DNA of 64,000 bases from Eubacteriales bacterium (GTDB lineage: Bacteria; Bacillota; Clostridia; Oscillospirales; UBA644). Each line of letters opens with the position of its first letter. Position 1 is the stretch's first letter. Below are positions 1 through 53,096 of this stretch, one piece after another. The position numbers were made by a program, and so were the translations under genes. The notes below the pieces were generated by a model, which worked only from the letters and a program-made list of their open reading frames with translations, searched no databases and was not told where the DNA came from. The DNA lies in contig JAZQKK010000014.1 of the NCBI GenBank assembly GCA_045542115.1, positions 253,646-317,645 of the forward strand, read 5' to 3'.

Positions 1-708
1 GTCTTCAATGCAAGACGTGGTGAAGTAGACCCGATCGTGCAACACCTTTTTGCCTTTCAACCGTTCCGCAATATAGACCTCGTTGACTTTGCTCAAAGGT
101 CCGCGGAGCTTGTTGGAAACGCCTAACTTACCATCCTTCATTTCCAAAACGGGGCGAAGTTTCAGAAGGTTTGCACCGAACATTTCCACAGCGGAGCAAC
201 GGCCACCCTTCCGCATATATTCCAAATCGCCCAAAACGAAGGATACGTTCAACTTATCCGCAAGATTTCGGCAGGTCTCGGCAATCGCCGCGGCATCGGC
301 ATTTTCTTCTGCGGCCATTTCCACAGCTTCAATGGCCAAAAGAGCCATCCCGGTGGAAAGGGATTTGGTATCGACAACGTAAACGTTCTCTACTTCTTCT
401 GCGGCAAGGCAAGCGTTCTGATAGCAGGAAGAAAGAGCGGAACTGATGCAGAAATGAATCACGGCATCCGCATCTTTCAACTGTTCCCGGAAGAAATCTT
501 CAAACTCCACGGGAGGAATGGCACAGGTCTTGGGAAGAATTCCGGTGCGGGCAACGAAATCGTAGATCCCCTGAGCATCCAAATCTACGCCGTCGGTATG
601 AGTCTCTTCTCCTAACTGAACCTTCAAAGGAATTTTTACGATCCCGTACTGTTGCAGTTGTTCCTCGGTCATATCGAGGGTGCTTTCCGCAGTAATTCTA
701 ATCTTCAT
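1..708 (-). CDS. degV: DegV family fatty-acid-binding protein (runs off the left edge; absent from the ORF track)
   Basis: Manual translation from ATG 708: MKIRITAESTLDMTEEQLQQYGIVKIPLKV...LPKTCAIPP...HFCISSALSSCYQNA...VVDTKSLSTG...LEYMRKGGR; typical DegV motifs. RBS AAGGAG upstream. Confidence 0.92.
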   Translation of the reverse strand, partial: MKIRITAESTLDMTEEQLQQYGIVKIPLKVQLGEETHTDGVDLDAQGIYDFVARTGILPKTCAIPPVEFEDFFREQLKDADAVIHFCISSALSSCYQNACLAAEEVENVYVVDTKSLSTGMALLAIEAVEMAAEENADAAAIAETCRNLADKLNVSFVLGDLEYMRKGGRCSAVEMFGANLLKLRPVLEMKDGKLGVSNKLRGPLSKVNEVYIAERLKGKKVLHDRVYFTTSCIED

Positions 709-779
709 AAATTTCTTACTCCTTTCGGGGCACTCGCGTGGGAGCGCGCGAAATATTATTTATTATAATACTATATAGT

Positions 780-808
780 ATTATATCACACTTTTTACCT
801 TTTGTAAA
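780..808 (-). promoter_or_regulatory. sigmaA promoter of degV
   Basis: Minus strand TTTACA-N17-TATAAT with an extended -10 TG. Confidence 0.6.
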
Positions 809-842
809 GAGCGAAAAGCGAAATTCATCAGATTTTCGGGAA

Positions 843-1330
843 TTTTCACATTCTTGACTCTAAATTGGATAATCATTCCCCTTGCGGAAGAGTTTTCCAC
901 AGGTTCATTCCCTTAAAAAACATTGAAAACAACTGTTTTTCCCCGCTCTCCACAGGGTTTTCCACGGTTTTATACCGTTTTGGTGTGGGGCAGGCGGGAA
1001 ATATTTTTGCATATATTTCCCTGTTACAAGGCATACAAAAAAGTTGGACAAACTTTATTTTTCCCCTTGTATCAAGGTTTTTTCGTTGTCAATGTCTTTT
1101 TTCGGAACATTTCCCAAAATTTCCCAAGATGGAAAAAAGCCGTTAAAACCGGGGTTTTGCACATTTTCCACAGGGTTTTCCACGCTTATGAATATACAAC
1201 GGTGGAAAACTATTCGGCATTTTGCACAAGAGCCAAAATTTCCCGATTTTATCATCTTTTTTGACATTATGCGACAAAAAACGAACGTTCGAAATCAAAA
1301 CGGGGGCATTAAAATTCAAATTTGCACAAG
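843..1330. promoter_or_regulatory. Non-coding cluster of DnaA-box-like 9-mers
   Basis: TTTTCCACA at 893 and 1164, CTCTCCACA at 946, TTTTCCACG at 958 and 1176, TTTTGCACA at 1155 and 1220, reverse TTTTCCACC near 1201, reverse TTATCCAAT near 865. Consensus is TTATCCACA. Confidence 0.55.
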
Positions 1331-1336
1331 AAAAAT

Positions 1337-1777
1337 TTATACGTTTCGTAAAGCAGTTAACAACAAGGCCTCCGCAAGACGGTCCAAGGCAAAAAAGCAA
1401 TCACGCCCCCGGGGAGAGAGTCGCTGTAAATCGCCCCATATCCCCCACAAATCTTCCCGGCGTCGGAAGGGCGTTTCATCGAAGCGAAAAGGGTCGGAAG
1501 ACAGCAAAACAACCGACTGCTCCGCCCACTCCCGCTCCGGAGAAGTAAGATAAAAAACCGTTGGAAATACCGAAAAAATCGAAGATGATATTTCATACAA
1601 ATCTTCCCGTTCTATGGGAGTAATAAAATCCCGGAGCAGATGCATACACAACCCTTTGTGTCGGTGAAAACACGATTCCCGAAAAGCCTCGGCCCGGTCT
1701 TGCGAGGGAGAACGAATGGCAGACAACAACAATGAAAATTCTTCCAAAACCGTTGTATAAAAATAATTTTTTTTCAT
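1337..1777 (-). CDS. Short, divergent DUF47 (PhoU-like phosphate transport regulator) family protein
   Basis: Contains DFITPIEREDLYEIS, matching the DUF47 FITP(F/I)(D/E)RED motif. SD GGGGAGG upstream. Only 146 aa. Confidence 0.55.
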   Translation of the reverse strand: MKKNYFYTTVLEEFSLLLSAIRSPSQDRAEAFRESCFHRHKGLCMHLLRDFITPIEREDLYEISSSIFSVFPTVFYLTSPEREWAEQSVVLLSSDPFRFDETPFRRREDLWGIWGDLQRLSPRGRDCFFALDRLAEALLLTALRNV

Positions 1778-1784
1778 AAAAACA

Positions 1785-1814
1785 CCTCCCCGAAGAGTTT
1801 ATGCTCCGGGGAGG
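1785..1814 (-). terminator. Hairpin after the rnf operon; its 3' arm is also the SD of the next gene
   Basis: Minus strand CCTCCCCGGAG-cataaact-CTTCGGGGAGG followed by TGTTTTT-ATG. Confidence 0.55.
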
Positions 1815-1830
1815 GAAAACAGAAGTTATT

Positions 1831-1968
1831 TTAAATCAGACCCAACAGCATCAAAATGGGACGGGCGGCAAAAAATCCAAGGATAAACAAAAGGATTCCC
1901 GTCACAATTAACCAAGGAAGATGCTTTCGCACCCCTCGGGTGCGATGAAACGACCATTCCCGCCTCAT
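1831..1968 (-). CDS. 45-aa single-TM small protein coupled to rnfB
   Basis: MRREWSFHRTRGVRKHLPWLIVTGILLFILGFFAARPILMLLGLI; its ATG overlaps the rnfB stop (ATGA at 1968-1965). Basic N-terminus followed by a hydrophobic helix. Confidence 0.55.
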   Translation of the reverse strand: MRREWSFHRTRGVRKHLPWLIVTGILLFILGFFAARPILMLLGLI

Positions 1969-2801
1969 TGCGCCGTCTCCGTCTCCAAAGACACACAACC
2001 GTCGAGAATGATTTTTCGGGGGCATTTGGAGGCACACAGGCCGCAATGATTACAGAGAGAGTAATCAATGTGGGCAATGTTATCCACGAAGGTAATGGCG
2101 TTGTTGGGACAATTCTTGGCACAGATACCGCAACCGATACACCCCACCTGACAGTGAGACCGGACGGTAACGCCCTTATCTTTGGACTTGCAAGCCACCC
2201 AATACCGGGAATCAAAGGGCACTAATTCAATCAGATTTTGAGGACAGGCGGTCACGCACATTCCACAGGCACGGCACTGGTCGTATTCCACGAACGCGGC
2301 GCCGTCTTGCAGTTTAATGGCGTCAAAAGCGCAAGCATTCACACAGGACCCCAATCCGATACAACCGTAACTGCATTCTTTGGGACCGTTCCCCAAGCGG
2401 GAGACCGAGTGGCAATCGGCAAGGCCTTGATAAAGATATTTGTAATTCGCCGTTCGGTTGTTTCCGCTACACATCACCTGTGCCCGCATCCGAACCGGTT
2501 CTTTCACTTCCACTCCCATAATTTCCGCAATCTTTTTGTTGGCCTCCGCCCCGGCAACGGGACAACGTCCCACGGGAGCAGTTCCTTCCACGATCGCCTT
2601 GGCGTAAGCTCCGCAACCGCTGTAACCGCAGCCGCCGCAGTTCGCTCCGGCCAACTGCTCGGAGATCTCGTCAATACGGGGGTCTTTTTCCACGGCAAAT
2701 TTCTTCGCGGCAAACGCCAACAGAACGCCGAAGAGAAAGGCTACCGCCGCCAGAACCAAAATAGTGATGGGAATTTCAAGATAAACAGGCATTGCTATCA
2801 T
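1965..2801 (-). CDS. rnfB: Rnf electron transport complex subunit B (polyferredoxin)
   Basis: N-terminal TM, GANCGGCGYSGC motif, several CxxCxxCxxxCP ferredoxin motifs. Confidence 0.95.
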   Translation of the reverse strand: MIAMPVYLEIPITILVLAAVAFLFGVLLAFAAKKFAVEKDPRIDEISEQLAGANCGGCGYSGCGAYAKAIVEGTAPVGRCPVAGAEANKKIAEIMGVEVKEPVRMRAQVMCSGNNRTANYKYLYQGLADCHSVSRLGNGPKECSYGCIGLGSCVNACAFDAIKLQDGAAFVEYDQCRACGMCVTACPQNLIELVPFDSRYWVACKSKDKGVTVRSHCQVGCIGCGICAKNCPNNAITFVDNIAHIDYSLCNHCGLCASKCPRKIILDGCVSLETETAQ

Positions 2802-2812
2802 ATCATTCCTCC

Positions 2813-3388
2813 TTAAAACGACAAGCGCAATCCCCCGAAAGCAAGGGCCAAAAGACCGCCGGCAATCAGGGCAATGGGAACCCCACGGAAGGGCTTGGGA
2901 ATTTTGGCAAACTCAAACCGTTCCCGAACGAGAGAAAGCAAGAAAATAGCCAACAGGAATCCCAGTCCGGCGGCAAAGCCGTAGACGGTAGATTCGATGA
3001 AGTTGTAATCGTTCTGCACGTTGAGAAGGGCAACCCCCAAAACGGCGCAGTTAGTAGTAATCAACGGAAGATAAATTCCCAAAGCGGAATACAACGCGGG
3101 GATGGCCTTCTGCAAGAACATTTCGATGAACTGTACCAAGCAGGCAATCAGCAGAATAAAGGCAATGGTCTCCAAATATTCAATGTGCAAGGGTTTGAGA
3201 ACAAAATGGTACAAAGGCCAGGTCAGGGCGGACGCAATCGTCATCGTAAAGGTGACGGCAAGCCCCATTCCCACAGCCGTTCCTGTTTTTTGGGATACAC
3301 CTAAAAATGGGCAGATACCGTAGAATTTTACAAACACGAAGTTTTCAATTAAAATTGCGGAAAGAGCGAGTAAAAACAAATTTGCCAT
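2813..3388 (-). CDS. rnfA: Rnf subunit A
   Basis: ENFVFVKFYGICPFLGVS and YLPLITTNCAVLG motifs. Confidence 0.96.
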   Translation of the reverse strand: MANLFLLALSAILIENFVFVKFYGICPFLGVSQKTGTAVGMGLAVTFTMTIASALTWPLYHFVLKPLHIEYLETIAFILLIACLVQFIEMFLQKAIPALYSALGIYLPLITTNCAVLGVALLNVQNDYNFIESTVYGFAAGLGFLLAIFLLSLVRERFEFAKIPKPFRGVPIALIAGGLLALAFGGLRLSF

Positions 3389-3391
3389 AAC

Positions 3392-4012
3392 TCAGTCCTC
3401 CTTCTTTTTAGAACGGTTTTTCAGCCATTGCACAAAGGCAATCAAACCGCCCAGAATCAAAAATCCACCCACGGGAGAAATCACCAAAACCGCGGGAGAA
3501 TAGGCCTCGGGAAGGACTTTCAGTCCGAGAAGGGTTCCGCTGCCGATCAATTCCCGAATCGCGGAAATAATGACCAGCGCAACCGTAAATCCAAACCCCA
3601 TCGCAAGACCGTCCAACACCGAAGGTAACGGACCGTGCTTGGAAGCAAAGCTTTCCGCCCGGGCAAGAATCACGCAGTTTACCACGATAAGCGGGATAAA
3701 CAACCCCAAGGATTCCGCCAGCGACGGAACGTAGGCCTGCAACACCATATCCACCACTGTAACAAAGCCGGCGATGATAACGATATACGATGCAATCCGA
3801 ATTTTCGAAGGAATAAAATTCCGCAAAAGCGAAATAAACAGATTAGAAAGGATAAGAACAAACGTCACGCTCAGTCCCATTCCGATCCCGTTGATGACCG
3901 TGGTGGAAACAGCCAACGTGGAACACATCCCCAAAAGTTGAACGAAAATGGGGTTCTGGTCCAAAAGGCCGTCTTTAAAAATTTTACCCACCGATACGTT
4001 GTCTTTTGCCAT
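3392..4012 (-). CDS. rnfE: Rnf subunit E
   Basis: NPIFVQLLGMCSTLAVS and FIPLIVVNCVILARAE motifs. Confidence 0.96.
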   Translation of the reverse strand: MAKDNVSVGKIFKDGLLDQNPIFVQLLGMCSTLAVSTTVINGIGMGLSVTFVLILSNLFISLLRNFIPSKIRIASYIVIIAGFVTVVDMVLQAYVPSLAESLGLFIPLIVVNCVILARAESFASKHGPLPSVLDGLAMGFGFTVALVIISAIRELIGSGTLLGLKVLPEAYSPAVLVISPVGGFLILGGLIAFVQWLKNRSKKKED

Positions 4013-44578: not shown

Positions 44579-45400
44579 TTAGCCCAAGAAATCGTGATTC
44601 AAGGTAAGCTTGAAGTCTTTTTCGATGGCCAGAAGATATTCGTCGGTAATGGTCTGCAAGATGGGTTTGCCGGTGTGGAGAATGTTCAGATAGATCTGCG
44701 CGGATTTTTCCACGGTGTGCATCAGACCGAAGGTGTTGTCAAAATCTGTGCTGGCGGCAAAAATACCGTGGTGAGCCCAGATAGCAACGTCAAACTCCTT
44801 CATATAATCACTGGTGGCTTTCGCAACATCCAGACCGCCGGGCATCATCCAGGGAATCACGGCGACACCGTGGGGGAAGATGATGGGGCATTCGGTCATC
44901 GTGCACCAAAGAGCGCGGGAGAAGGTCTTGTTATCCAAGGGAAGAACAAAGGTCAACGCAATTACGCCCACGGGGTGGCAATGGTAAATGGTGCGGTAAT
45001 CGGGGTTGGCGGCCTTCTTGACGGAATGGTTCATCAAGTGACTGGGGAATTCGCTGGTGGGACGGTCTTTGCCGTCGTTCAGACCCCAAACCAGACGGTA
45101 AGCGTCACCCTTATCGTTGATTTCGGCAATGCCGATCGCCAATTCGGGAGAGACGGTAAAGTTCTGAAAGAATTTTCCGGTGCCGGTGGTCATAAAGTAT
45201 TCCCCGGCCAGATTGGCAACGGTCATACCCAGAGAAATCCATTCGCCGGGAGCATAGAAGTAGGGACGGCAGTCTTCCACTTCCTCGGCCTTCATACGGT
45301 AGGTCAGGTTTCCGCCGTTCCGTTCGTGCCAGCCTTGTTTCCAGCCTTCGTTCCCGAGACGGATAAACCCTTGCATTACGTTGGTATCAAAAATAGACAT
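44579..45400 (-). CDS. rhaD: Rhamnulose-1-phosphate aldolase
   Basis: GWHERNGGNLTYR, TGTGKFF, PTSEFPSHL, HCHP, MTEC, WAHHG. Confidence 0.95.
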   Translation of the reverse strand: MSIFDTNVMQGFIRLGNEGWKQGWHERNGGNLTYRMKAEEVEDCRPYFYAPGEWISLGMTVANLAGEYFMTTGTGKFFQNFTVSPELAIGIAEINDKGDAYRLVWGLNDGKDRPTSEFPSHLMNHSVKKAANPDYRTIYHCHPVGVIALTFVLPLDNKTFSRALWCTMTECPIIFPHGVAVIPWMMPGGLDVAKATSDYMKEFDVAIWAHHGIFAASTDFDNTFGLMHTVEKSAQIYLNILHTGKPILQTITDEYLLAIEKDFKLTLNHDFLG

Positions 45401-45422
45401 TATTTTACTCCTCCTAAATCTA

Positions 45423-46661
45423 TTAAACACGTTTCAAAAGAACGTTTTCTTCATATTCACGAACTTGCTTCAACCATTCCACACCTTCGGGAACGTTGTT
45501 ACGACGGCAATATTCTGCCCAAACGTCGCCGAACGGCAGGGTCTTGGCTTCTTCCTGACGCACCAGAATGTCCGTAAAGTTGCCTTCCTCCTGAGCCTGC
45601 TTCAAGTTGGGTTGCAAGAGGGCAAACAACAGGGCCTTCTGCATATTCCGGGTACCTACGACCCAAGCGGCGATACGGTTGATGCTGGCATCAAAGAAGT
45701 CCAGACCGATAAGAACCTTTTCGGTCGCGTCGTTGCGAACGATTTCCTTGGCAATTTCCTTCAACTCATCGTCGAAGATGACCACGTGGTCCGAGTCCCA
45801 ACGAACGGGACGGGAAACGTGGAGAGGAATCTTGTCAAAGAAGGGCAGCAGGGCGGGAATCTTGTCGCTGACCACTTCCGTGGGATGGAAGTGACCGTTG
45901 TCCAAAAGATAGTAAACGCCGGGGTGAGATGCCGCATAAGAAACGTAAAATTCACCGGAGCCGACGGTGTAGGATTCTACGCCGATTCCGAAGACTTTAC
46001 TTTCCACACAGTCCACAACGCCGTCCAGTTTTTCGGCAAAGATTTGGTCCAGACTTTCTTTCAGACGCATCCGGGGACCGAGGCGGTCTGCGGGAATATC
46101 CTTGTAACCGTCGGGAATCCAAACGTTGACCAGACAGTGGGTATTCAGTTCTTTTGCAAAATAGGCGGCAATGCGGCGGCAGGCAATCCCGTGACGAATC
46201 CAGAAATCGCGGATTTCCTTGTCGGGATGAGACAACGTCAGACCGTCGGCAGCCTTGGGATGGGAGAAATAGGTGGGGTTGAAGTCCAAGCCAATATTGT
46301 GCTTCTTGGCAAATTCCACCCATTTAGCGAAATGCTTGGGTTCGAGGGCATCCCGGTCTACGGGTTCGCCGTCGAAAATAGCGTAACTTGCGTGGAGGTT
46401 CAAACGCTTTTTCCCGGGAATCAGTTTGTAACTGACTTCCAGGTCTGCCATCAGTTCTTCGGGAGTTCTCGCCCGGCCGGGGTAGTTCCCGGTGGTCTGA
46501 ATTCCGCCGGAAAGTCCGGCATCGGGACGGTCAAAGCCGTTGACGTCATCCCCTTGCCAGCAATGCATACTGACAGGAATGGTTCTCAGCAGTTCCAGAG
46601 CCTTTTCAGGGTCGATGCCCAGAGCAAGATATTGTTCTTTTGCACTTTCGTAACGGTTCAT
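45423..46661 (-). CDS. rhaA: L-rhamnose isomerase
   Basis: [66 protein letters not shown]. Confidence 0.96.
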
Positions 46662-46662
46662 A

Positions 46663-48954
46663 TTATTCTCCTTTGTATGTTTTCAGTTCAAAACTATCCG
46701 CAACAGCCTTGCGGGCACTTGTAATATCGGTGTAAACTCCTTCGCAAATCATCTGCGCTAAAATGTTGCCGATGGAAGAACACTCAGTGGGACCGGCAAG
46801 GACGGGAACACCGCAAATCTTCGCGGTCATATTGTCCAGATAATCGTCCTTACTGCCGCCGCCTACAATATGAATGGCATCGATGGAGCGTCCGGTAATT
46901 TCTTTCAGAAGGGTAAAATACTTCCCGTAAGCGGAAGAAAGACCGGCGTAAATGGCCTGCATTATTTCTCCCACGGTGGAGGGAACGGGCTGACCGGAAT
47001 CCCGGCAATATTCCTTGATTTCGGTCATCATACTTTCGGGGGCAAGGAAACGGGGGTCGCAGACGTCTACCACAGAGGGGAAATCCTTGGCTTCCGCCGC
47101 CATATCCGCCAACTGACCGAAGGAATACTTCTTATCCAACTCTCTGCGGACCGATTGAACAAACCACATTCCGTTGATGTTGCGAAGGTAACGGATCTTT
47201 CCGCCGCAACCGCCTTCGTTGGTAAACATCGCTTCGAAGCCTTCCTTGGACGTATTGGCCCGGTCCAGTTCCGTTCCGAAAATCGACCAAGTACCGCTGG
47301 AAATATAGACCACGTTATCTTTGGTGGTGGGAACGGCGAGGACCGCAGATGCAGTATCGTGGCTTGCGGCAAGAATCACGCGGCAAGAGAATCCGACCTT
47401 CTCGGCGATTTCGTCTTTCAGAACACCCACTTCCCGGCAGGGCTGATGAATGGTCCCAAAGGCTTCCTTGGGGAATCCGATGGTTTCCAAAACCTTTTCG
47501 TCCCAGGTTCCGGTCTCACAGTTGAGCATATTCGTGGTGGAACTGTTGGTGTATTCGTTCATCTTCACACCGGTCAACAGGAAGTTCAGATATTCGGGGA
47601 ACATCAAAAACGTCTTGGTCCGGGCGGCAATCTCAGGTTCCCGGAGTTTGGTTTCGTACAACTGGAACAACGTGTTGATAGCCTGCGCCTGACAACCGGT
47701 CCGGGCGTACAATTCTTCCTCGGGCATTACCTCAAAGAATTTTTCGGGAATTCCCACGGTACGGCTGTCCCGATAGGCGTAGGTCTCCCCTAAAACACGG
47801 TCTTTTTCATCCAGAAGAACGTAATCCACGCCCCAGGTGTCAATGGCCATTGTGGCAGGAATTTTTCCGATGTCCTTACAATGACGAAGACCGTTGATAA
47901 TTTGGGTAAACAGACGGTCGTAATCCCAGCACAGATGTCCGTCCCGACGGACCACGTTGTTCTCAAAGCGGTATACCTCTTCCAGAACGATTTTTCCGTC
48001 TTCCAATCCGCCTAAAATCAGCCGTCCGCTGGACGCACCGAGGTCAACGGCAAGATGATACTGTTTCAATAAATTCCCTCCGTATCCTTCGCTTTTCCAC
48101 ACCGCCGCCCGGTACTCCGCGGGGGAAGTTTTCATCACCCGGCGAAAGGCGCGGTTAAAGCTCGATTTTGTATTGAATCCGCCTTGCATTGCAATGTCAA
48201 GCACGGAGACTTTCGTGGTTTTTAAAAGGTTTGTGGCATAGGCGACCCGCTTCAAAAGAACGTACTCCCAGGGGGAGATTCCGTTCAAATCCCGGAACAC
48301 CTTCATAAAATAACTTTTGCTCATTCCCGCGGCACGGGCCATATCGTCCACCGTAATCTGTTCCCGGAAATTTGCGTTGATAAACCGCAAGCCCCGTTCC
48401 ACGTCGGAAACGGTGGTCCGCTCCGGACGGGTCCGGTCAGGATAATCGTAGTGACGCAACAAAAGAGCCAAGACCTGCATCGTCAAGGCCCGGGCTTCCA
48501 GGTCGGAAAACGGTTCTTCCTCGGAAACCGCCGCCGCAATGCGCTCCATCAAGGAACCCACCCCGGCGTTGGCCGGGTTGGCTCGGGGCAACCGGGCGGA
48601 AATTCCGGCAGTAGGACGAAGCAAAAACGAAACACAGCGAAAATCGTAAGACCCTTCTGCCCCATCCCAAATAAAACGGGGGTCAAAGCGAATCTGCAAA
48701 AAACGAAATTCCGGTTCTTTTGCCCGAAAAGAGTGGGCCGCGTGGCCGGGAAAGACGAACAGATCCCCGGGAATGGCATCGGCCTCGGTCTTGTCCGAAC
48801 GACAGACCCCCACACCCGATAAAATGCGGACCAATTCAATCTCCGAACGGGAAGGCAACGACAGGTCTTTGTCCTGGGGGGTCAAGGAATGTTCGCAGAC
48901 TTTGACCAAGAAATTTCCGTCGTGAGAGGCAATATGTGATTCCCGTAAAACCAT
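46663..48954 (-). CDS. rhaB: In-frame fusion of an AraC-family regulator (N-terminal ~295 aa) and rhamnulokinase (C-terminal ~468 aa)
   Basis: Cupin-like region plus AraC HTH ([10 protein letters not shown]...[13 protein letters not shown]), with no stop before [51 protein letters not shown]. Internal GGAGG-N7-TTG at 48069. Confidence 0.88.
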
Positions 48955-49135
48955 ACCGGGACCTTCTTTCTTCGTTTATTGTATCATATTAAAGAAAACG
49001 ATGCAACCGAAATAATATCAAATAAGGTGCAAATATTATTTTTATAAAAGTATAAAAAAATTTAAAATTCTCGATTTTTCCGGTAAAATTAGGATTTTTT
49101 TATTCTACAAAAAGGAGAAAATCTTCTTTTACCAT

Positions 49136-49164
49136 ATCATACCACATTTTAAGAAATTTGTCAA
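49136..49164 (-). promoter_or_regulatory. Candidate sigmaA promoter upstream of the araC-rhaB-rhaA-rhaD unit
   Basis: Minus strand TTGACA-N17-TATGAT. A second candidate, TTGCAT-N17-TACAAT, lies near 48978-49006. Confidence 0.55.
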
Positions 49165-49207
49165 GAAAAATCCCCGGAAGAATTTCTTCTCCCGGGGGGA
49201 AATCCCA

Positions 49208-51043
49208 TCAATTGGAAAGGTCGATTTTCGCAGGATAAAGGTAGAGGGACCCGTCGGTCATATGCTTGATGCGGTAAACGGAGCAATCCCGATTCCAGTT
49301 GATTTTAAATCCGGCTTTCTGCAACTCCGAAACGATCAGATAGTGCCGCGACGAGATGATGAGATAGTCATACAACTCCAACATTTTTACGTCCGTGGGA
49401 ATGGAATATTCCGGACTTCCCAAATCCAAGTCAAAGCACACGCGCGTCTTCAATTCATACATCATCAGATAATAATATAAATCCCGTCTTCCCCGTTCTC
49501 CGTTGCACATCGCGACTTTGGAATTACGGGGGATGATTTGCGCCGCTTCCTGCAAAACGTCCATTACTTTTCCCCGTTCGGTCGTGGCGAAATCGGGGCG
49601 GAAAATCAATTGGCTTGCAGGTCCGATAACCAAGGAAAACAGGAACAGAGATACGCAGATGGGAAGCAGTCGCGTGGCAAAAGGCCGATGTTCCAAAATA
49701 TGAGAAAGGGTGGTAATCATACCCTCGGCGAGCATCGCCACAAAGAGAATCAACGGCGTAATCATATATCGCTCAAAGGCCGCAAGATAACGGGCTTCGC
49801 CGATGGCCATAATAAATCCGTACATAAACAACAGAGCAAGGGCATACCAGACCATCAATCCGTTGGCAGAAATCCACGTCCGGAAAAGATATTTGCAGTT
49901 CTTTTTCCGGTGCCGAAGAAGCAACAGCACCCCCAGAACAAAGAGATTGAGAACCACGAAAAAGACCACGTAGATTTTGGAAAAATCGGTAATCTTATCC
50001 CAAAACAACCGTAAAATTTCTTGGTAAAACGAAAGGGAACGGTCCCGGAAGGTCTGGATAAGACCACCGTAAGAATAAGAATTCGTGGCCGTACCATAGG
50101 TCAGATCCCGATAGACCTTCCAAAGAGAGGTCATCAAAAAAGCCCCTGCAAACGGAGTTAAGAAGAGCAACGCCTTCCGTTTGAGACCAAAATTTTTCAA
50201 AGCATCATACAGGAAAAACAATGCAAAAAATGCGATAAGCAATCCGGCGTTGCTCTTGATCAACATCAAAAGAGCCAGGATGGGCGTCATAAACAGCCAT
50301 CCGAAAATCGGACGTTCCCGATACGCTTCCCGCAAAAACCAAATATCGACGGCAAGAAACCCCATCTGCGCGTCTACCAAAAGGTTGTAGACCTGCAACG
50401 TTCCGTCATCAAAGACCAAAAGGCACGTAAGTACAACTCCAAGAATCGTATAGGCGATAAACCGGAAGGAGACCGTCTTTTTAATTCGGAAAAACAAAGC
50501 GGACAACGCGGCACAGGAGAACAGTGCCTGCCCCATCAAGGCAATATCTTCTCCCGTTCCAACCACGTTACAGAACCAATATAAGAACGTAGTAGTGCCG
50601 GGGGCATAATCCCGGAATACAACCACCATACGGGCATTGGGAAAACTGTGGAAATCCAGCATTTCGGAAAGAATCGTTCCCCAATGGGAAAAATTATCGT
50701 AATGATAATAATGGGCCCCCCACAGGATGGGAATAAACGCGGCAGACATTACAAAAAAGAAAACAAAAGCCGGGGAAAGCAAAAAAGACAAGGAAACTTT
50801 TTTGCGAACAGCCAACACACAAAAGAAAATCAACAATACAAATCCAAGAATAAATAAGGCCCACGCCGCCGGTTGAAGGATTTGCAAAAGACCGCACAAA
50901 AAGAGGGTAAGCGTAAGGGTAGCAACGGTAAAAATGGGGATAAAAGCGGATTTTAACTTCGTCAAATAAGACACGAGACAAAACCAACCGCACAAAGATA
51001 CGACAAAGGTAAGCCAACGGAAGACCGTCCAAAAAACCGTCAT
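49208..51043 (-). CDS. Polytopic membrane protein, putative GT-C-like envelope-polymer modifying enzyme
   Basis: More than 12 hydrophobic segments; a YDNFSHWG...FP...DYAPG loop after the first TM bundle; soluble C-terminal domain. Start after GGAGGGGG. Function is inference. Confidence 0.6.
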   Translation of the reverse strand: MTVFWTVFRWLTFVVSLCGWFCLVSYLTKLKSAFIPIFTVATLTLTLFLCGLLQILQPAAWALFILGFVLLIFFCVLAVRKKVSLSFLLSPAFVFFFVMSAAFIPILWGAHYYHYDNFSHWGTILSEMLDFHSFPNARMVVVFRDYAPGTTTFLYWFCNVVGTGEDIALMGQALFSCAALSALFFRIKKTVSFRFIAYTILGVVLTCLLVFDDGTLQVYNLLVDAQMGFLAVDIWFLREAYRERPIFGWLFMTPILALLMLIKSNAGLLIAFFALFFLYDALKNFGLKRKALLFLTPFAGAFLMTSLWKVYRDLTYGTATNSYSYGGLIQTFRDRSLSFYQEILRLFWDKITDFSKIYVVFFVVLNLFVLGVLLLLRHRKKNCKYLFRTWISANGLMVWYALALLFMYGFIMAIGEARYLAAFERYMITPLILFVAMLAEGMITTLSHILEHRPFATRLLPICVSLFLFSLVIGPASQLIFRPDFATTERGKVMDVLQEAAQIIPRNSKVAMCNGERGRRDLYYYLMMYELKTRVCFDLDLGSPEYSIPTDVKMLELYDYLIISSRHYLIVSELQKAGFKINWNRDCSVYRIKHMTDGSLYLYPAKIDLSN

Positions 51044-51152
51044 AACATCCCCCTCCCTCTTTTTTATTATTGTAACACAGAACCGGGAAATTGTCAACCA
51101 AAAAAAATAAAAGACCGGAGATTTTCTCAAAACAAAAATCTCCGGTCTTGTT

Positions 51153-52973
51153 TTATCGGTAAATTGCAGCAAAGCTTTCGTGGGGAAGCAGGGTAACGGT
51201 CAGTTGTTTGTCGGTCAAATCAAAGGGTTTTTCCGAACACAGGGGCGTTTCGATTCCCGGAACGGTTACGGTTCTTGGAATCTCTTCCCAATTCACCACC
51301 ACAAGTGCCTTATCCCCCAAAAAGACCGAGGGATTTCGGTAATCGTCGGACAGATACTTCGGCCGAAGGGATTCTCCCGCAAGGCGGAAGGCGTTTTCAA
51401 TGATTTGAATTCCTCTTTCGTTGAGAACGGACATCCGGTCAGAGAGGAAAATATTCCCGCCGGACAGCGCCACCAAATTGGCCCAGGTTTCCGCTTCCAA
51501 GGCATTGAATTGGTCGCCGTGACGCCAAATAAGCTTCATTCGGTCTTTCGACGTTTGTTTTGCCCGGGGCGGCGCGGGGTAATCGTTTCGATCCCCCTCC
51601 CAGATCAGAGGTTCATCGGCGGTTTCTTCCCCTCGAACCACTAAGAAATCCGGGTCAACACGGGTAATTTTATTGTTGTAAACCGAAGACCAGGCAATGG
51701 AACGGGCGATGGCTTTGACGTGAGAAAAGTGGTTATGGATATCCAAGCCCAATCGCATCGAAGGAGCAATATCCGCCCCACATTCCAAGGGAAGGGAACA
51801 TCCCAAAATCACCACATCGGGACCGGTATACGCCTTCACGTCGTTGACTAAGTCTGCCAAAACACCGTAAGGCGTTGCGGTTTTATCGTAAAAATCCTTA
51901 ATTTCCAACAACGGGGAAACGTAATCCATTTTAAACAGACGGAATCCGGCACGATATTGATAGAGGTATGCATCCAAAATAAACTGCCGGGCATCGGGGT
52001 GAGTGGGGTCCAGGTAATATAAGCCGGAAGTTTCAAACAATTCTCCGTCTTCTCCGCGGCAAAACCATTCCGGATGCGCCCGGAAGACTGCAACGTCGTC
52101 CCGGACGCCGACGGGAGTCATCCAAATTCCGGGGATAAATCCAGCCTCCCGAATCCGACGGGCAACTTCGCTTAAACCACAGGAAAACTTTTCGTTTTCC
52201 ACCCAATCGCCCCAGCCTTTCTGCCATCCGTCATCAATGACGATGTAATCCAATCGGTCGGCAAAGGACATTGTTTTTAAGGCTTCTACGTTTTCAAAAA
52301 CGTCTTCTGCCGTAACCCGGTCCAAATAATAATCCCACGTATTCCATCCGGTCAACTTTGGCATTGGGAAACTGCTTTGAGGTAACAAATCCCGATACAA
52401 AGTATAAAATTCATCAATGGAGACGGCTTGGTTTACGTAGGCACGTTCCGCATCCAACCGGGTCGCCTGTTGAAGGCTTTTGGTATATTCGGTCTTCACA
52501 CAAAAGGTGACGCATCCGTCTTCCCCTTTGCAGGCCGTTGCGGCACAGATGTTCCGGAAAGGCGATACTCCGGCGACCAAACTTCCGGACAGGGACAGGT
52601 CTTCATACCAACCCATTGCGGTTTCACAATATTCCGTATTCACCCCAAGTTCGGAGGGAAATCGAATCTCATTTTCTGTGGTGGCTCTGCCAATCAGGGC
52701 AATATGGTCGGTCATTTTAGGGAAACAGGGGTTGCAAACCACACTGTCAATCCGTCGAATCCCCAAGGGAACGTTGGAAGAAACGCTTAAATCCACCAAA
52801 ATGCCGCCGGCATACGGGGTATGGGTCCAAGTCACCTCCGCATTGTCCACAGACGCACGGTAAACCGTCACGTCTCCGCAGACCTCACCTTGCAAATCTG
52901 CCGCAGAAACCGTTACGGTTTTTTCGGCAAAATAAAGTCGAAAACTAAGGGAATTTCCAAAATGCTTCTTCAT
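51153..52973 (-). CDS. Glycoside hydrolase, GH36-like (alpha-galactosidase clan D)
   Basis: GWNTWDYY, IVIDDGWQKGWGDW, PGIWMTP, YLDPTHP, FKMDY nucleophile, MRLGLD, VDPD. Confidence 0.82.
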   Translation of the reverse strand: MKKHFGNSLSFRLYFAEKTVTVSAADLQGEVCGDVTVYRASVDNAEVTWTHTPYAGGILVDLSVSSNVPLGIRRIDSVVCNPCFPKMTDHIALIGRATTENEIRFPSELGVNTEYCETAMGWYEDLSLSGSLVAGVSPFRNICAATACKGEDGCVTFCVKTEYTKSLQQATRLDAERAYVNQAVSIDEFYTLYRDLLPQSSFPMPKLTGWNTWDYYLDRVTAEDVFENVEALKTMSFADRLDYIVIDDGWQKGWGDWVENEKFSCGLSEVARRIREAGFIPGIWMTPVGVRDDVAVFRAHPEWFCRGEDGELFETSGLYYLDPTHPDARQFILDAYLYQYRAGFRLFKMDYVSPLLEIKDFYDKTATPYGVLADLVNDVKAYTGPDVVILGCSLPLECGADIAPSMRLGLDIHNHFSHVKAIARSIAWSSVYNNKITRVDPDFLVVRGEETADEPLIWEGDRNDYPAPPRAKQTSKDRMKLIWRHGDQFNALEAETWANLVALSGGNIFLSDRMSVLNERGIQIIENAFRLAGESLRPKYLSDDYRNPSVFLGDKALVVVNWEEIPRTVTVPGIETPLCSEKPFDLTDKQLTVTLLPHESFAAIYR

Positions 52974-53096
52974 TAAAACCACCTGCTTTTTTGTATTGGG
53001 GAAAAGATGATGCTATTTTATCACAATCGAAAGGCATTGTCAAGAATTTTTTTTAAGTTTTTCATAATTTTATGCTACAAAAAAACAAACTTTATA

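Follow-up and report, generated by a model that had tools for sequence, protein, structure and literature searches.

Results

One reading frame joins an AraC-type regulator to a rhamnulokinase

We analysed a 64,000-nucleotide stretch of DNA (the window; contig JAZQKK010000014.1, positions 253,646 to 317,645 of the forward strand) from the metagenome-assembled genome (MAG) GCA_045542115.1 of an Eubacteriales bacterium (Clostridia; Oscillospirales; UBA644; genome G000 below), in which one gene on the reverse strand encodes both an AraC-type transcription regulator and a rhamnulokinase. All coordinates refer to the window. An earlier interpretation made from the letters alone (the sequence-only reading) had described one 763-residue open reading frame (ORF) with no stop between the AraC helix-turn-helix (HTH) and the FGGY kinase, and this holds in the ORF list, in the sequence and in the Pfam matches. 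The frame begins with ATG, is free of internal stops and encodes, in order, an AraC cupin, an AraC HTH, a 12-residue linker and a complete FGGY rhamnulokinase, with Pfam placing AraC_binding at residues 36-162, HTH_18 at 205-283, FGGY_N at 299-539 and FGGY_C at 549-736.

46663..48954 (-): araC(rhaR-like)::rhaB fusion gene, 763 residues, 85.2 kDa, defined by the ORF, its domains and full-length stop-free orthologues
48469..48849 (-): AraC-type cupin ligand-binding/dimerisation domain, residues 36-162 (PF02311, 28 bits; cut-off 21.1)
48100..48420 (-): AraC/XylS dual HTH DNA-binding domain, residues ~179-285 (HTH_18 69.6 bits, HTH_AraC 52.8 bits)
48064..48099 (-): linker, residues 286-297, related by homology to the untranslated rhaB leaders of the stand-alone loci L010, L013, L107 and L014
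46666..48060 (-): FGGY rhamnulokinase domain, residues 299-763 (FGGY_N and FGGY_C, TIGR02627 at 501 bits, intact catalytic motifs)

The N-terminal part has the cupin expected of the AraC/RhaS subgroup, as seen from the PF02311 match, from the AlphaFold2 (AF2) model, which places a β-barrel at residues 2-90 and long helices at 128-168, and from the dN/dS value given below. The sequence-only reading had pointed to PSRSEIEL in this region, where many AraC cupins have H-x-H..E residues. The motif is indeed present (residues 34-41), but the remark on the histidines proved uninformative, with AraC_binding matched above its cut-off. AraC-type cupins are sugar-binding, not metal-binding, domains. Both HTH matches exceed their Pfam cut-offs (33.6 bits for HTH_18, 26.6 bits for HTH_AraC), a PDB search paired this part with the DNA-binding domains of AdpA, SoxS, Rob and RamA, and the AF2 model contains seven helices across residues 179-285, in keeping with the ~100-residue dual HTH of the AraC/XylS family.

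The kinase half is matched by FGGY_N (PF00370, 119.9 bits), FGGY_C (PF02782, 102.9 bits) and the NCBIfam rhamnulokinase model TIGR02627, which covers residues 301-757. It aligns end to end with E. coli RhaB (PDB 2CGJ; residues 301-760, 296 bits), and the motifs of the latter are retained at residues 304-311, at SHDTAS (531-536, with the catalytic Asp533), at SSGTWS (552-557) and at IVGGGS (696-701). The phosphate-1, phosphate-2 and adenosine motifs and the catalytic Asp of FGGY kinases can all be assigned, and the kinase moiety is predicted to be catalytically competent. A DNA-binding domain and a pathway enzyme, the latter with an activity predicted from its motifs, are therefore present in one polypeptide, as in a trigger enzyme. 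The AF2 model of the whole protein, built from a 125-sequence alignment, has a mean predicted local distance difference test score (pLDDT) of 88.6 and a predicted template modelling score (pTM) of 0.63. It shows confident domains arranged as beads on a string, the linker being predicted disordered (pLDDT <50 at residues 288-295).

The fusion is widely conserved within one clade

Six-frame searches of 40 relatives of G000 revealed the full-length, stop-free fusion in seven further species genomes of the same genus at 86-90% identity (eight with G000). Two more genomes of the genus hold a fusion truncated by contig ends, and another genus of the family has one at 51% identity. All same-genus genomes that possess the AraC part (10/10) carry it fused. 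In a collection of 5.8 billion proteins, 17 clusters of 763-766 residues with 67 member sequences were found at 78-94% identity, together with two more distant fused proteins, P0022 (770 residues, 51%) and P0023 (758 residues, 48%). Among 185,579 GTDB species representatives, ten loci contain the whole of the N-terminal 340 residues; all ten belong to MAGs named 'Clostridia/Eubacteriales bacterium', with water-deer and dairy-cattle gut as the stated sources. Contigs of four bovine-gut metagenome runs also span the junction, with no difference listed at 48067-48081.

Full-length AraC + FGGY homologues in independent genomes, which the sequence-only reading had named as one check on its proposal, are thus at hand from the same genus, from another genus and from the protein clusters. 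Its alternative of a recent stop-codon loss or an assembly error is contradicted by conservation of the fusion down to 48% identity and by the purifying selection described below. From this comparison of homologues, the fusion is genuine and selectively maintained, as opposed to an artefact or a recent accident.

We also queried 1.84 billion representatives at 50% identity with residues 186-360, which comprise the HTH, the linker and the kinase N-terminus. Both parts were matched by a single representative, that of this clade (345 bits), and the next matches, at ≤105 bits, are single-domain or double-AraC proteins. The joining of AraC to rhamnulokinase appears restricted to this clade among the representatives searched. 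Two kinds of apparent further fusion were rejected. Lachnospiraceae and Roseburia matches over residues 132-340 turned out to be joined high-scoring segment pairs across two adjacent genes, and the long two-stretch hits among the representatives are double-AraC proteins. Numerous proteins of 460-650 residues with two complete HTH_18 domains occur in this library (P0241, P0242, P0244, P0251, P0257 and others); they are either tandem AraC-AraC fusions or merged gene calls. Full-text literature searches yielded no account of AraC fused to an FGGY protein or to rhamnulokinase, and a survey of rhamnose regulons does not mention one (PMC3870299).

Both halves, and probably the fused state, are under selection

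Over 13 complete in-genus genes (mean pairwise dS ~1.5), dN/dS is 0.108 for the cupin, 0.105 for the HTH, 0.042 for FGGY_N and 0.071 for FGGY_C. Both halves are functional, with every domain under purifying selection. The linker has a dS of 0.58 against ~1.5 elsewhere.

Were a stop codon to arise in the linker upstream of the Shine-Dalgarno (SD) sequence described below, the AraC protein would remain intact and rhaB translatable. For a tree length of 7.0 substitutions per 4-fold site and ~6.3 single-base paths to a stop in the linker, a rough calculation assuming equal rates predicts ~15 neutral stop gains; none is observed. Because these predicted stop gains are missing, the fused state itself appears to be selected. 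A search of the 5.8 billion proteins with the AraC part alone, which would retrieve split products of 160-500 residues, returned one doubtful candidate. This is L020 (ENA contig ROVI19-1...scaffold_216733, 1,276 nt; positions 1100-1276), with an AraC part 80% identical to that of G000, a TAA in the linker (AAVR*TEGYAAN) and the SD altered from GGAGGG to GCAGCG. As the TAA and the SD change all lie within 25 nt (≤25 nt) of the contig end, L020 is either a real variant or a contig-end error. The states observed are fused genes and regulator-less genes, with essentially no split pairs. This absence is not an ascertainment artefact, since all genus genomes with the AraC part have it fused and the AraC-only search found just L020.

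The linker is a former leader that retains a probable translation start

Stand-alone rhaB genes, 76-83% identical to the fused kinase, occur in one same-genus genome (G004, locus L010) and on several metagenome contigs. Their leaders read ...GGATACGGAGGAACTTGTTTGAAACAG (L013), ...AAGGATACGGAGGGAGCTTTTTTGAAACAG (L107), ...AATGGAGGAAATATGCAGAAA (L010) and ...ACGGAGGCAGTATGCTG (L014), and the corresponding stretch of the fusion reads ...GAAGGATACGGAGGGAATTTATTGAAACAG. Given this homology, the linker is best described as the translated former 5' untranslated region of rhaB, with its GGAGG and TTG as the ancestral initiation site. The sole possible start of the stand-alone genes lies at the homologous codon, which is TTG in L013 and L107 and ATG in L010 and L014.

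48077..48081 (-): internal SD, GGAGG; the GGA codon (G292) is invariant, and the motif is GGAGG in 14 of 15 fusion genes and GGAGA in one
48067..48069 (-): in-frame TTG (L296), probable internal start, invariant in 15/15, which would give a free RhaB of 468 residues and 52.1 kDa

The GGAGG at 48081-48077, 7 nt before an in-frame TTG at 48069, had been noted in the sequence-only reading and is confirmed. The spacer is GAATTTA, a spacing appropriate for initiation, and the predicted short form begins MKQYHL, with (f)Met-KQYHLAVDLGASSGR at its N-terminus. A codon alignment of the 15 in-genus fusion genes was used to separate nucleotide from protein constraint. Among columns conserved at the amino acid level, just 2 of 43 Gly columns are codon-invariant, GGA292 being one of these, and just 1 of 41 Leu columns, namely TTG296. 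When synonymous diversity was computed for 715 nine-codon windows, codons 292-300 gave the lowest value (0.136; mean 0.468). Next lowest are codons 755-763, where the SD of rhaA is embedded, providing a built-in positive control. The nucleotides of the putative start are thus conserved beyond what the protein requires. RNA folding places the SD region among the least structured of the mRNA (rank 8-48 of 747), and a consensus scan of the AraC coding part revealed no internal sigma-70-type promoter on the coding strand.

The earlier proposal of an internal ribosome-binding site (RBS) able to make free RhaB is accordingly borne out as very probable: the site is ancestral, is used by stand-alone relatives and is conserved synonymously, and GGAGG/TTG is very probably a working start. 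Dual products of 85 kDa and 52 kDa are likely. At L009 and L101 the full-length frame starts with GTG. The SD before the first start varies widely (AGAAGG to AAAGGAGGG) and the internal SD is nearly invariant, which suggests that the two initiation sites are under different constraints.

A unique direct repeat abuts a weak promoter

The 15 orthologous upstream regions share one strongly conserved block, consisting of ATATTTGCRCC-N10-TTATTTCGGTT, TTGMAT, a 17-nt spacer and TG-n-TACAAT. A second promoter lies ~130 nt upstream of this block and ~180 nt ahead of the fusion ATG.

49004..49036 (-): candidate operator, direct repeat with 21-bp period, ATATTTGCACC-N10-TTATTTCGGTT, abutting the -35
48978..49006 (-): proximal promoter, probably activator-dependent; -35 TTGCAT (49006-49001), 17-nt spacer, TG-extended -10 (48986-48978) with TACAAT at 48983-48978
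49136..49164 (-): distal near-consensus sigma-70-type promoter, TTGACA-17-TATGAT with TG, 11/12 consensus matches, conserved in 13/15 loci

The repeat consists of two 11-mers spaced 21 bp apart, a layout reported for AraC-type rhamnose regulators (PMC3870299). It occurs upstream of 16/17 fused genes, including the 50%-identical L030 (ATATTTGCGCC-N10-ATATTTGGGTC); at L015 the motif is more divergent. It is absent from five stand-alone loci, and no further copy with up to 3 mismatches exists in the 1.93-Mb genome, making the site unique. The proximal -35 is weak and falls below the threshold of the consensus scan. As the conserved repeat at its own -35 is unique in the genome, the fusion protein would act as a single-target activator of its own operon.

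The distal promoter comes directly after the intrinsic terminator (49172-49197) of the gene for the upstream membrane protein and is itself closely followed by a conserved AAAAGAAGATTTTC box. L102 and L105, which have another gene upstream, are without this promoter. The homologous distal promoter directly drives stand-alone rhaB in L010 and L013, and once the regulator is lost the operon seems to depend on a promoter of constitutive appearance.

Operon context and genomic surroundings

The fusion gene heads an operon, with its rhaB part followed directly on the same strand by rhaA and rhaD, and then by galT.

45423..46661 (-): rhaA, L-rhamnose isomerase (Pfam RhaA, 672 bits), with its SD AAGGAG within the last codons of the fusion gene
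44579..45430 (-): rhaD-like class II aldolase, rhamnulose-1-phosphate aldolase (Pfam Aldolase_II, 77.9 bits)

The order of rhaA and aldolase is also found in orthologous loci, the genomic context expected of RhaB. A six-frame search of the same genome found no second strong RhaB match. In L015 (the 48%-identical fusion; 484-3609) the aldolase gene directly follows the fused gene with no rhaA between, and the stand-alone rhaB of L106 also has just the aldolase gene behind it. The RhaB proteins of other genera in the family (G012-G024) are just 37-43% identical to the fused kinase, against ~52-54% for the Lachnospiraceae- and Oscillospiraceae-type RhaB; on the basis of this difference the rha cluster of the genus was probably acquired horizontally.

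Two genes lie directly upstream of the rha locus. A 654-residue polytopic membrane protein with no Pfam match (49208-51172, -) is conserved in the genus and in the regulator-less L013. The other gene (51153-52982, -), which overlaps the first by 20 nt, encodes a 609-residue protein with a weak Melibiase (GH27/36-like) match. These proteins might form a glycoside-uptake or processing pair.

Evolutionary history of the fusion

A separate araC-type gene in the same orientation as rhaB and 20-150 nt ahead of it is common in Lachnospiraceae, Oscillospiraceae and Neglectibacter timonensis, and this tandem is likely to represent the layout before fusion. In a tree of the kinase domain, a single clade unites all fusions with the stand-alone proteins closest to them (99% in the Shimodaira-Hasegawa-like approximate likelihood ratio test, SH-aLRT). 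Within it, the fused P0022 and P0023 are sister to all others; the stand-alone P0024-P0026 then separate from a group in which the stand-alone P0020 and P0021 are sister to the genus fusions, and among the latter the stand-alone P0018 and P0019 are nested (97%). The nested position is favoured by a log-likelihood difference of 20, with p = 0.105 in the approximately unbiased (AU) test.

The AraC halves of the two fused groups are closest to each other (HTH 50%, cupin 23-34% identical), the linker length is identical in both, and the operator motif is the same in L030. A search for stand-alone orthologues close to the AraC half gave none, and the best genuine stand-alone match (P0123) is 32% identical. 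At its loci (L016-L019) it is placed divergently next to genes for an enolase-superfamily dehydratase, a metallo-lactonase, a short-chain dehydrogenase/reductase and an RraA-like protein, a gene set that corresponds to a non-phosphorylative pathway for deoxy-sugar (rhamnose/fucose) acids.

The regulator-less L013 occupies the same chromosomal locus as the fusion, with the same upstream membrane-protein gene, terminator and promoter, and is without the ~1 kb that corresponds to 49093-48090 of the window. Tree and loci would be explained most economically by a single old fusion, after which the AraC part was lost at least twice. Parallel fusion of this gene pair on two occasions is possible.

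Discussion

Proposed mechanism

The account that we propose is of a selected AraC regulator-RhaB fusion that autoregulates its operon and carries an internal start for free RhaB. As a whole we hold it with moderate confidence; that the protein binds DNA, what induces it, that two products are made and why fusion is favoured are deduced rather than observed. The fusion would have arisen when an upstream araC-type gene began to read through the short rhaB leader, which would now serve as a 12-residue flexible linker. A low basal transcript, partly via the distal constitutive promoter, would supply some protein, and the HTH of the 85-kDa form would bind the 21-bp-period repeat abutting the -35 of its own weak promoter. 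The inducer-bound form, most simply with L-rhamnose in the cupin, would activate (araC::rhaB)-rhaA-rhaD in a single-target positive autoregulation, and the kinase moiety of the same protein would be competent for phosphorylation. Ribosomes would also initiate at the internal GGAGG-7 nt-TTG to yield free 52-kDa RhaB. As this initiation would be independent, the supply of kinase would not be tied 1:1 to that of regulator. We treat sensing by the cupin as the default because this domain is intact and constrained (dN/dS 0.11).

Several observations weigh against this account. The organism is uncultured, none of the RNA runs searched contains the fusion locus, and it is from the DNA that we infer the 52-kDa product and the DNA binding. 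The distant fusions L030 and L015 keep an in-frame ATG at the same place with a weak SD (GGGAT), and dual translation may not be universal. The stop-gain expectation is approximate, given its assumption of equal rates. Monophyly of the in-genus fusions is compatible with the AU test (no significant rejection), which leaves the direction of some transitions between fused and stand-alone states unproven. For the substrate, 501 bits is just under the TIGR02627 equivalog cut-off of 527.95, NF007925 gives 416 bits against a cut-off of 639, and in the PDB search the S. pneumoniae L-fuculokinase (4C23) scores the same as RhaB. In view of the sub-threshold score and this equal score, the substrate assignment rests on operon context.

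Alternative explanations

A different role for the kinase domain is the strongest of the alternatives, though we consider it unlikely. Here, as the sequence-only reading had suggested as one option, the tethered kinase would be the sensor, through binding or turnover of L-rhamnulose/ATP or through local rhamnulose-1-phosphate, and would gate DNA binding by the AraC part, so that the regulator would fail if separated. This would explain why the linker is kept open when a stop would leave intact AraC and translatable RhaB, and why nature shows fused or regulator-less genes and never a clean split; regulator-kinase precedents are available in RbkR (PMC5397151) and BzdR (PMC3602430). However, the cupin, the usual sensor of AraC proteins, is intact and as constrained as the HTH, and in the AF2 model the linker is disordered and the domains are not confidently packed against each other (pTM 0.63). 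A dependence of the regulator on the kinase, by allostery, dimerisation or stability, is possible. That the AraC half depends on tethered RhaB to the extent of being a true AraC-family trigger enzyme, with the free RhaB copy tuning the signal, we regard as doubtful; if it does, the locus would be a one-gene, two-product metabolic feedback device.

It is also rather unlikely that the halves act independently and that a neutral read-through has merely persisted, or helps in a generic way such as AraC solubility or stability. The flexible linker and the independent domain folds would suit such a history, as would an internal start that preserves independent RhaB synthesis, and several lineages have dropped the AraC part while keeping rhaB under a constitutive-looking promoter. 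A purely neutral state is nevertheless difficult to reconcile with ~15 expected stop gains against 0 over a 4-fold-site tree length of 7, and with persistence of the fusion to 48% identity at unchanged linker length. A generic stabilising effect is compatible with the data.

The internal start of the account that we favour might instead be no start at all, the GGAGG and TTG being kept as a Gly-Gly hinge with preferred codons, for SD-like pausing during co-translational folding, or as RNA structure. The Gly-Gly and Leu residues are indeed conserved at the protein level too, and there are distant fusions without a strong SD. We nonetheless judge this improbable: protein constraint does not fix codons elsewhere in the gene (2/43 Gly and 1/41 Leu columns invariant), the same SD and start are the initiation site of the stand-alone relatives, the region is unstructured as opposed to structured, and the genuine rhaA RBS bears the same signature. 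Finally, in spite of the MAG origin of the genome and of the TAA that L020 has in its linker, 25 nt before this 1.3-kb metagenome contig ends, an assembly or sequencing artefact or a very recent stop loss in this one genome has a negligible chance of being correct, as the same architecture is found in more than 20 independent assemblies, from differing studies and hosts, down to 48% identity.

Significance

Read as a selected, autoregulating fusion, the gene is a natural 'Rosetta-stone' joining of a transcription factor with the enzyme that it would control, and the moment of fusion is readable in the DNA, where the linker is the former leader and where selection still acts on the former RBS and start. 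The gene is a tractable system in which to ask why regulators fuse to enzymes, be it for stoichiometry, stability or allosteric sensing, and illustrates how internal starts let a fused gene go on making the ancestral protein. In the single source name seen, the genes of this clade are labelled just 'helix-turn-helix domain-containing protein'; because annotation names only this part, rhamnose catabolism would be under-called in these ruminant-gut Clostridia. Hidden internal starts in other genes can be tested for in the same way, by a scan of synonymous diversity in which a neighbouring RBS serves as the internal control.

Comparison with known systems

The fusion resembles E. coli RhaS/RhaR, Bacteroides RhaR and the predicted RhaR of Bacillales and Enterococcus in its cupin and dual HTH and in its location in a rha operon, and the autoregulation of rhaSR is similar to that proposed here. 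Stand-alone AraC proteins are not orthologous to the AraC half, with ~27-33% identity. In contrast to RhaS/RhaR, the fusion alone has a complete enzyme C-terminal to the DNA-binding domain and an apparent single genomic target. With E. coli RhaB (2CGJ) it shares an end-to-end alignment, the conserved motifs and rhaA and rhaD downstream, but has in addition a 297-residue N-terminal regulator and probably two product sizes. The separate araC-rhaB tandems of Lachnospiraceae, Roseburia and Neglectibacter timonensis have the same gene order and strand and a short leader with the rhaB SD; they differ by a stop codon and a 20-150 nt spacer, and their AraC proteins are ~30% identical to the fused one.

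NadR, BirA and PutA are bifunctional regulator-enzymes ('trigger enzymes'). Further regulator-enzyme proteins are RbkR, an archaeal riboflavin kinase/regulator (PMC5397151), and BzdR, which combines an HTH with a shikimate-kinase-like domain (PMC3602430). All of these share with the fusion the presence, in one polypeptide, of a DNA-binding domain and an enzyme or enzyme-like domain of the controlled pathway. The fusion is different in keeping its own cupin sensor, in the position of an AraC-type DNA-binding domain in the middle of the protein, and in an enzyme that is probably also made free.

In-frame internal starts give rise to two isoforms of IF2 (alpha/beta), ClpB (93/79) and CheA (L/S). 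As in these genes, an SD and an in-frame start inside the ORF of the fusion would lead to a C-terminal isoform; in the fusion, however, the internal start would be the relic of a once-separate gene, and the short form would equal the ancestral stand-alone enzyme. Ada, a suicide methyltransferase of DNA repair, has an AraC-type HTH flanked by methyltransferase domains. Like the fusion, it has an enzyme domain C-terminal to an HTH of the AraC family, but its enzyme and logic are unrelated and it has no cupin. What appears to be new is therefore the combination of an AraC regulator that retains its own cupin, a complete sugar kinase behind the HTH, and a fossil, still-constrained start that would be able to release the ancestral enzyme.

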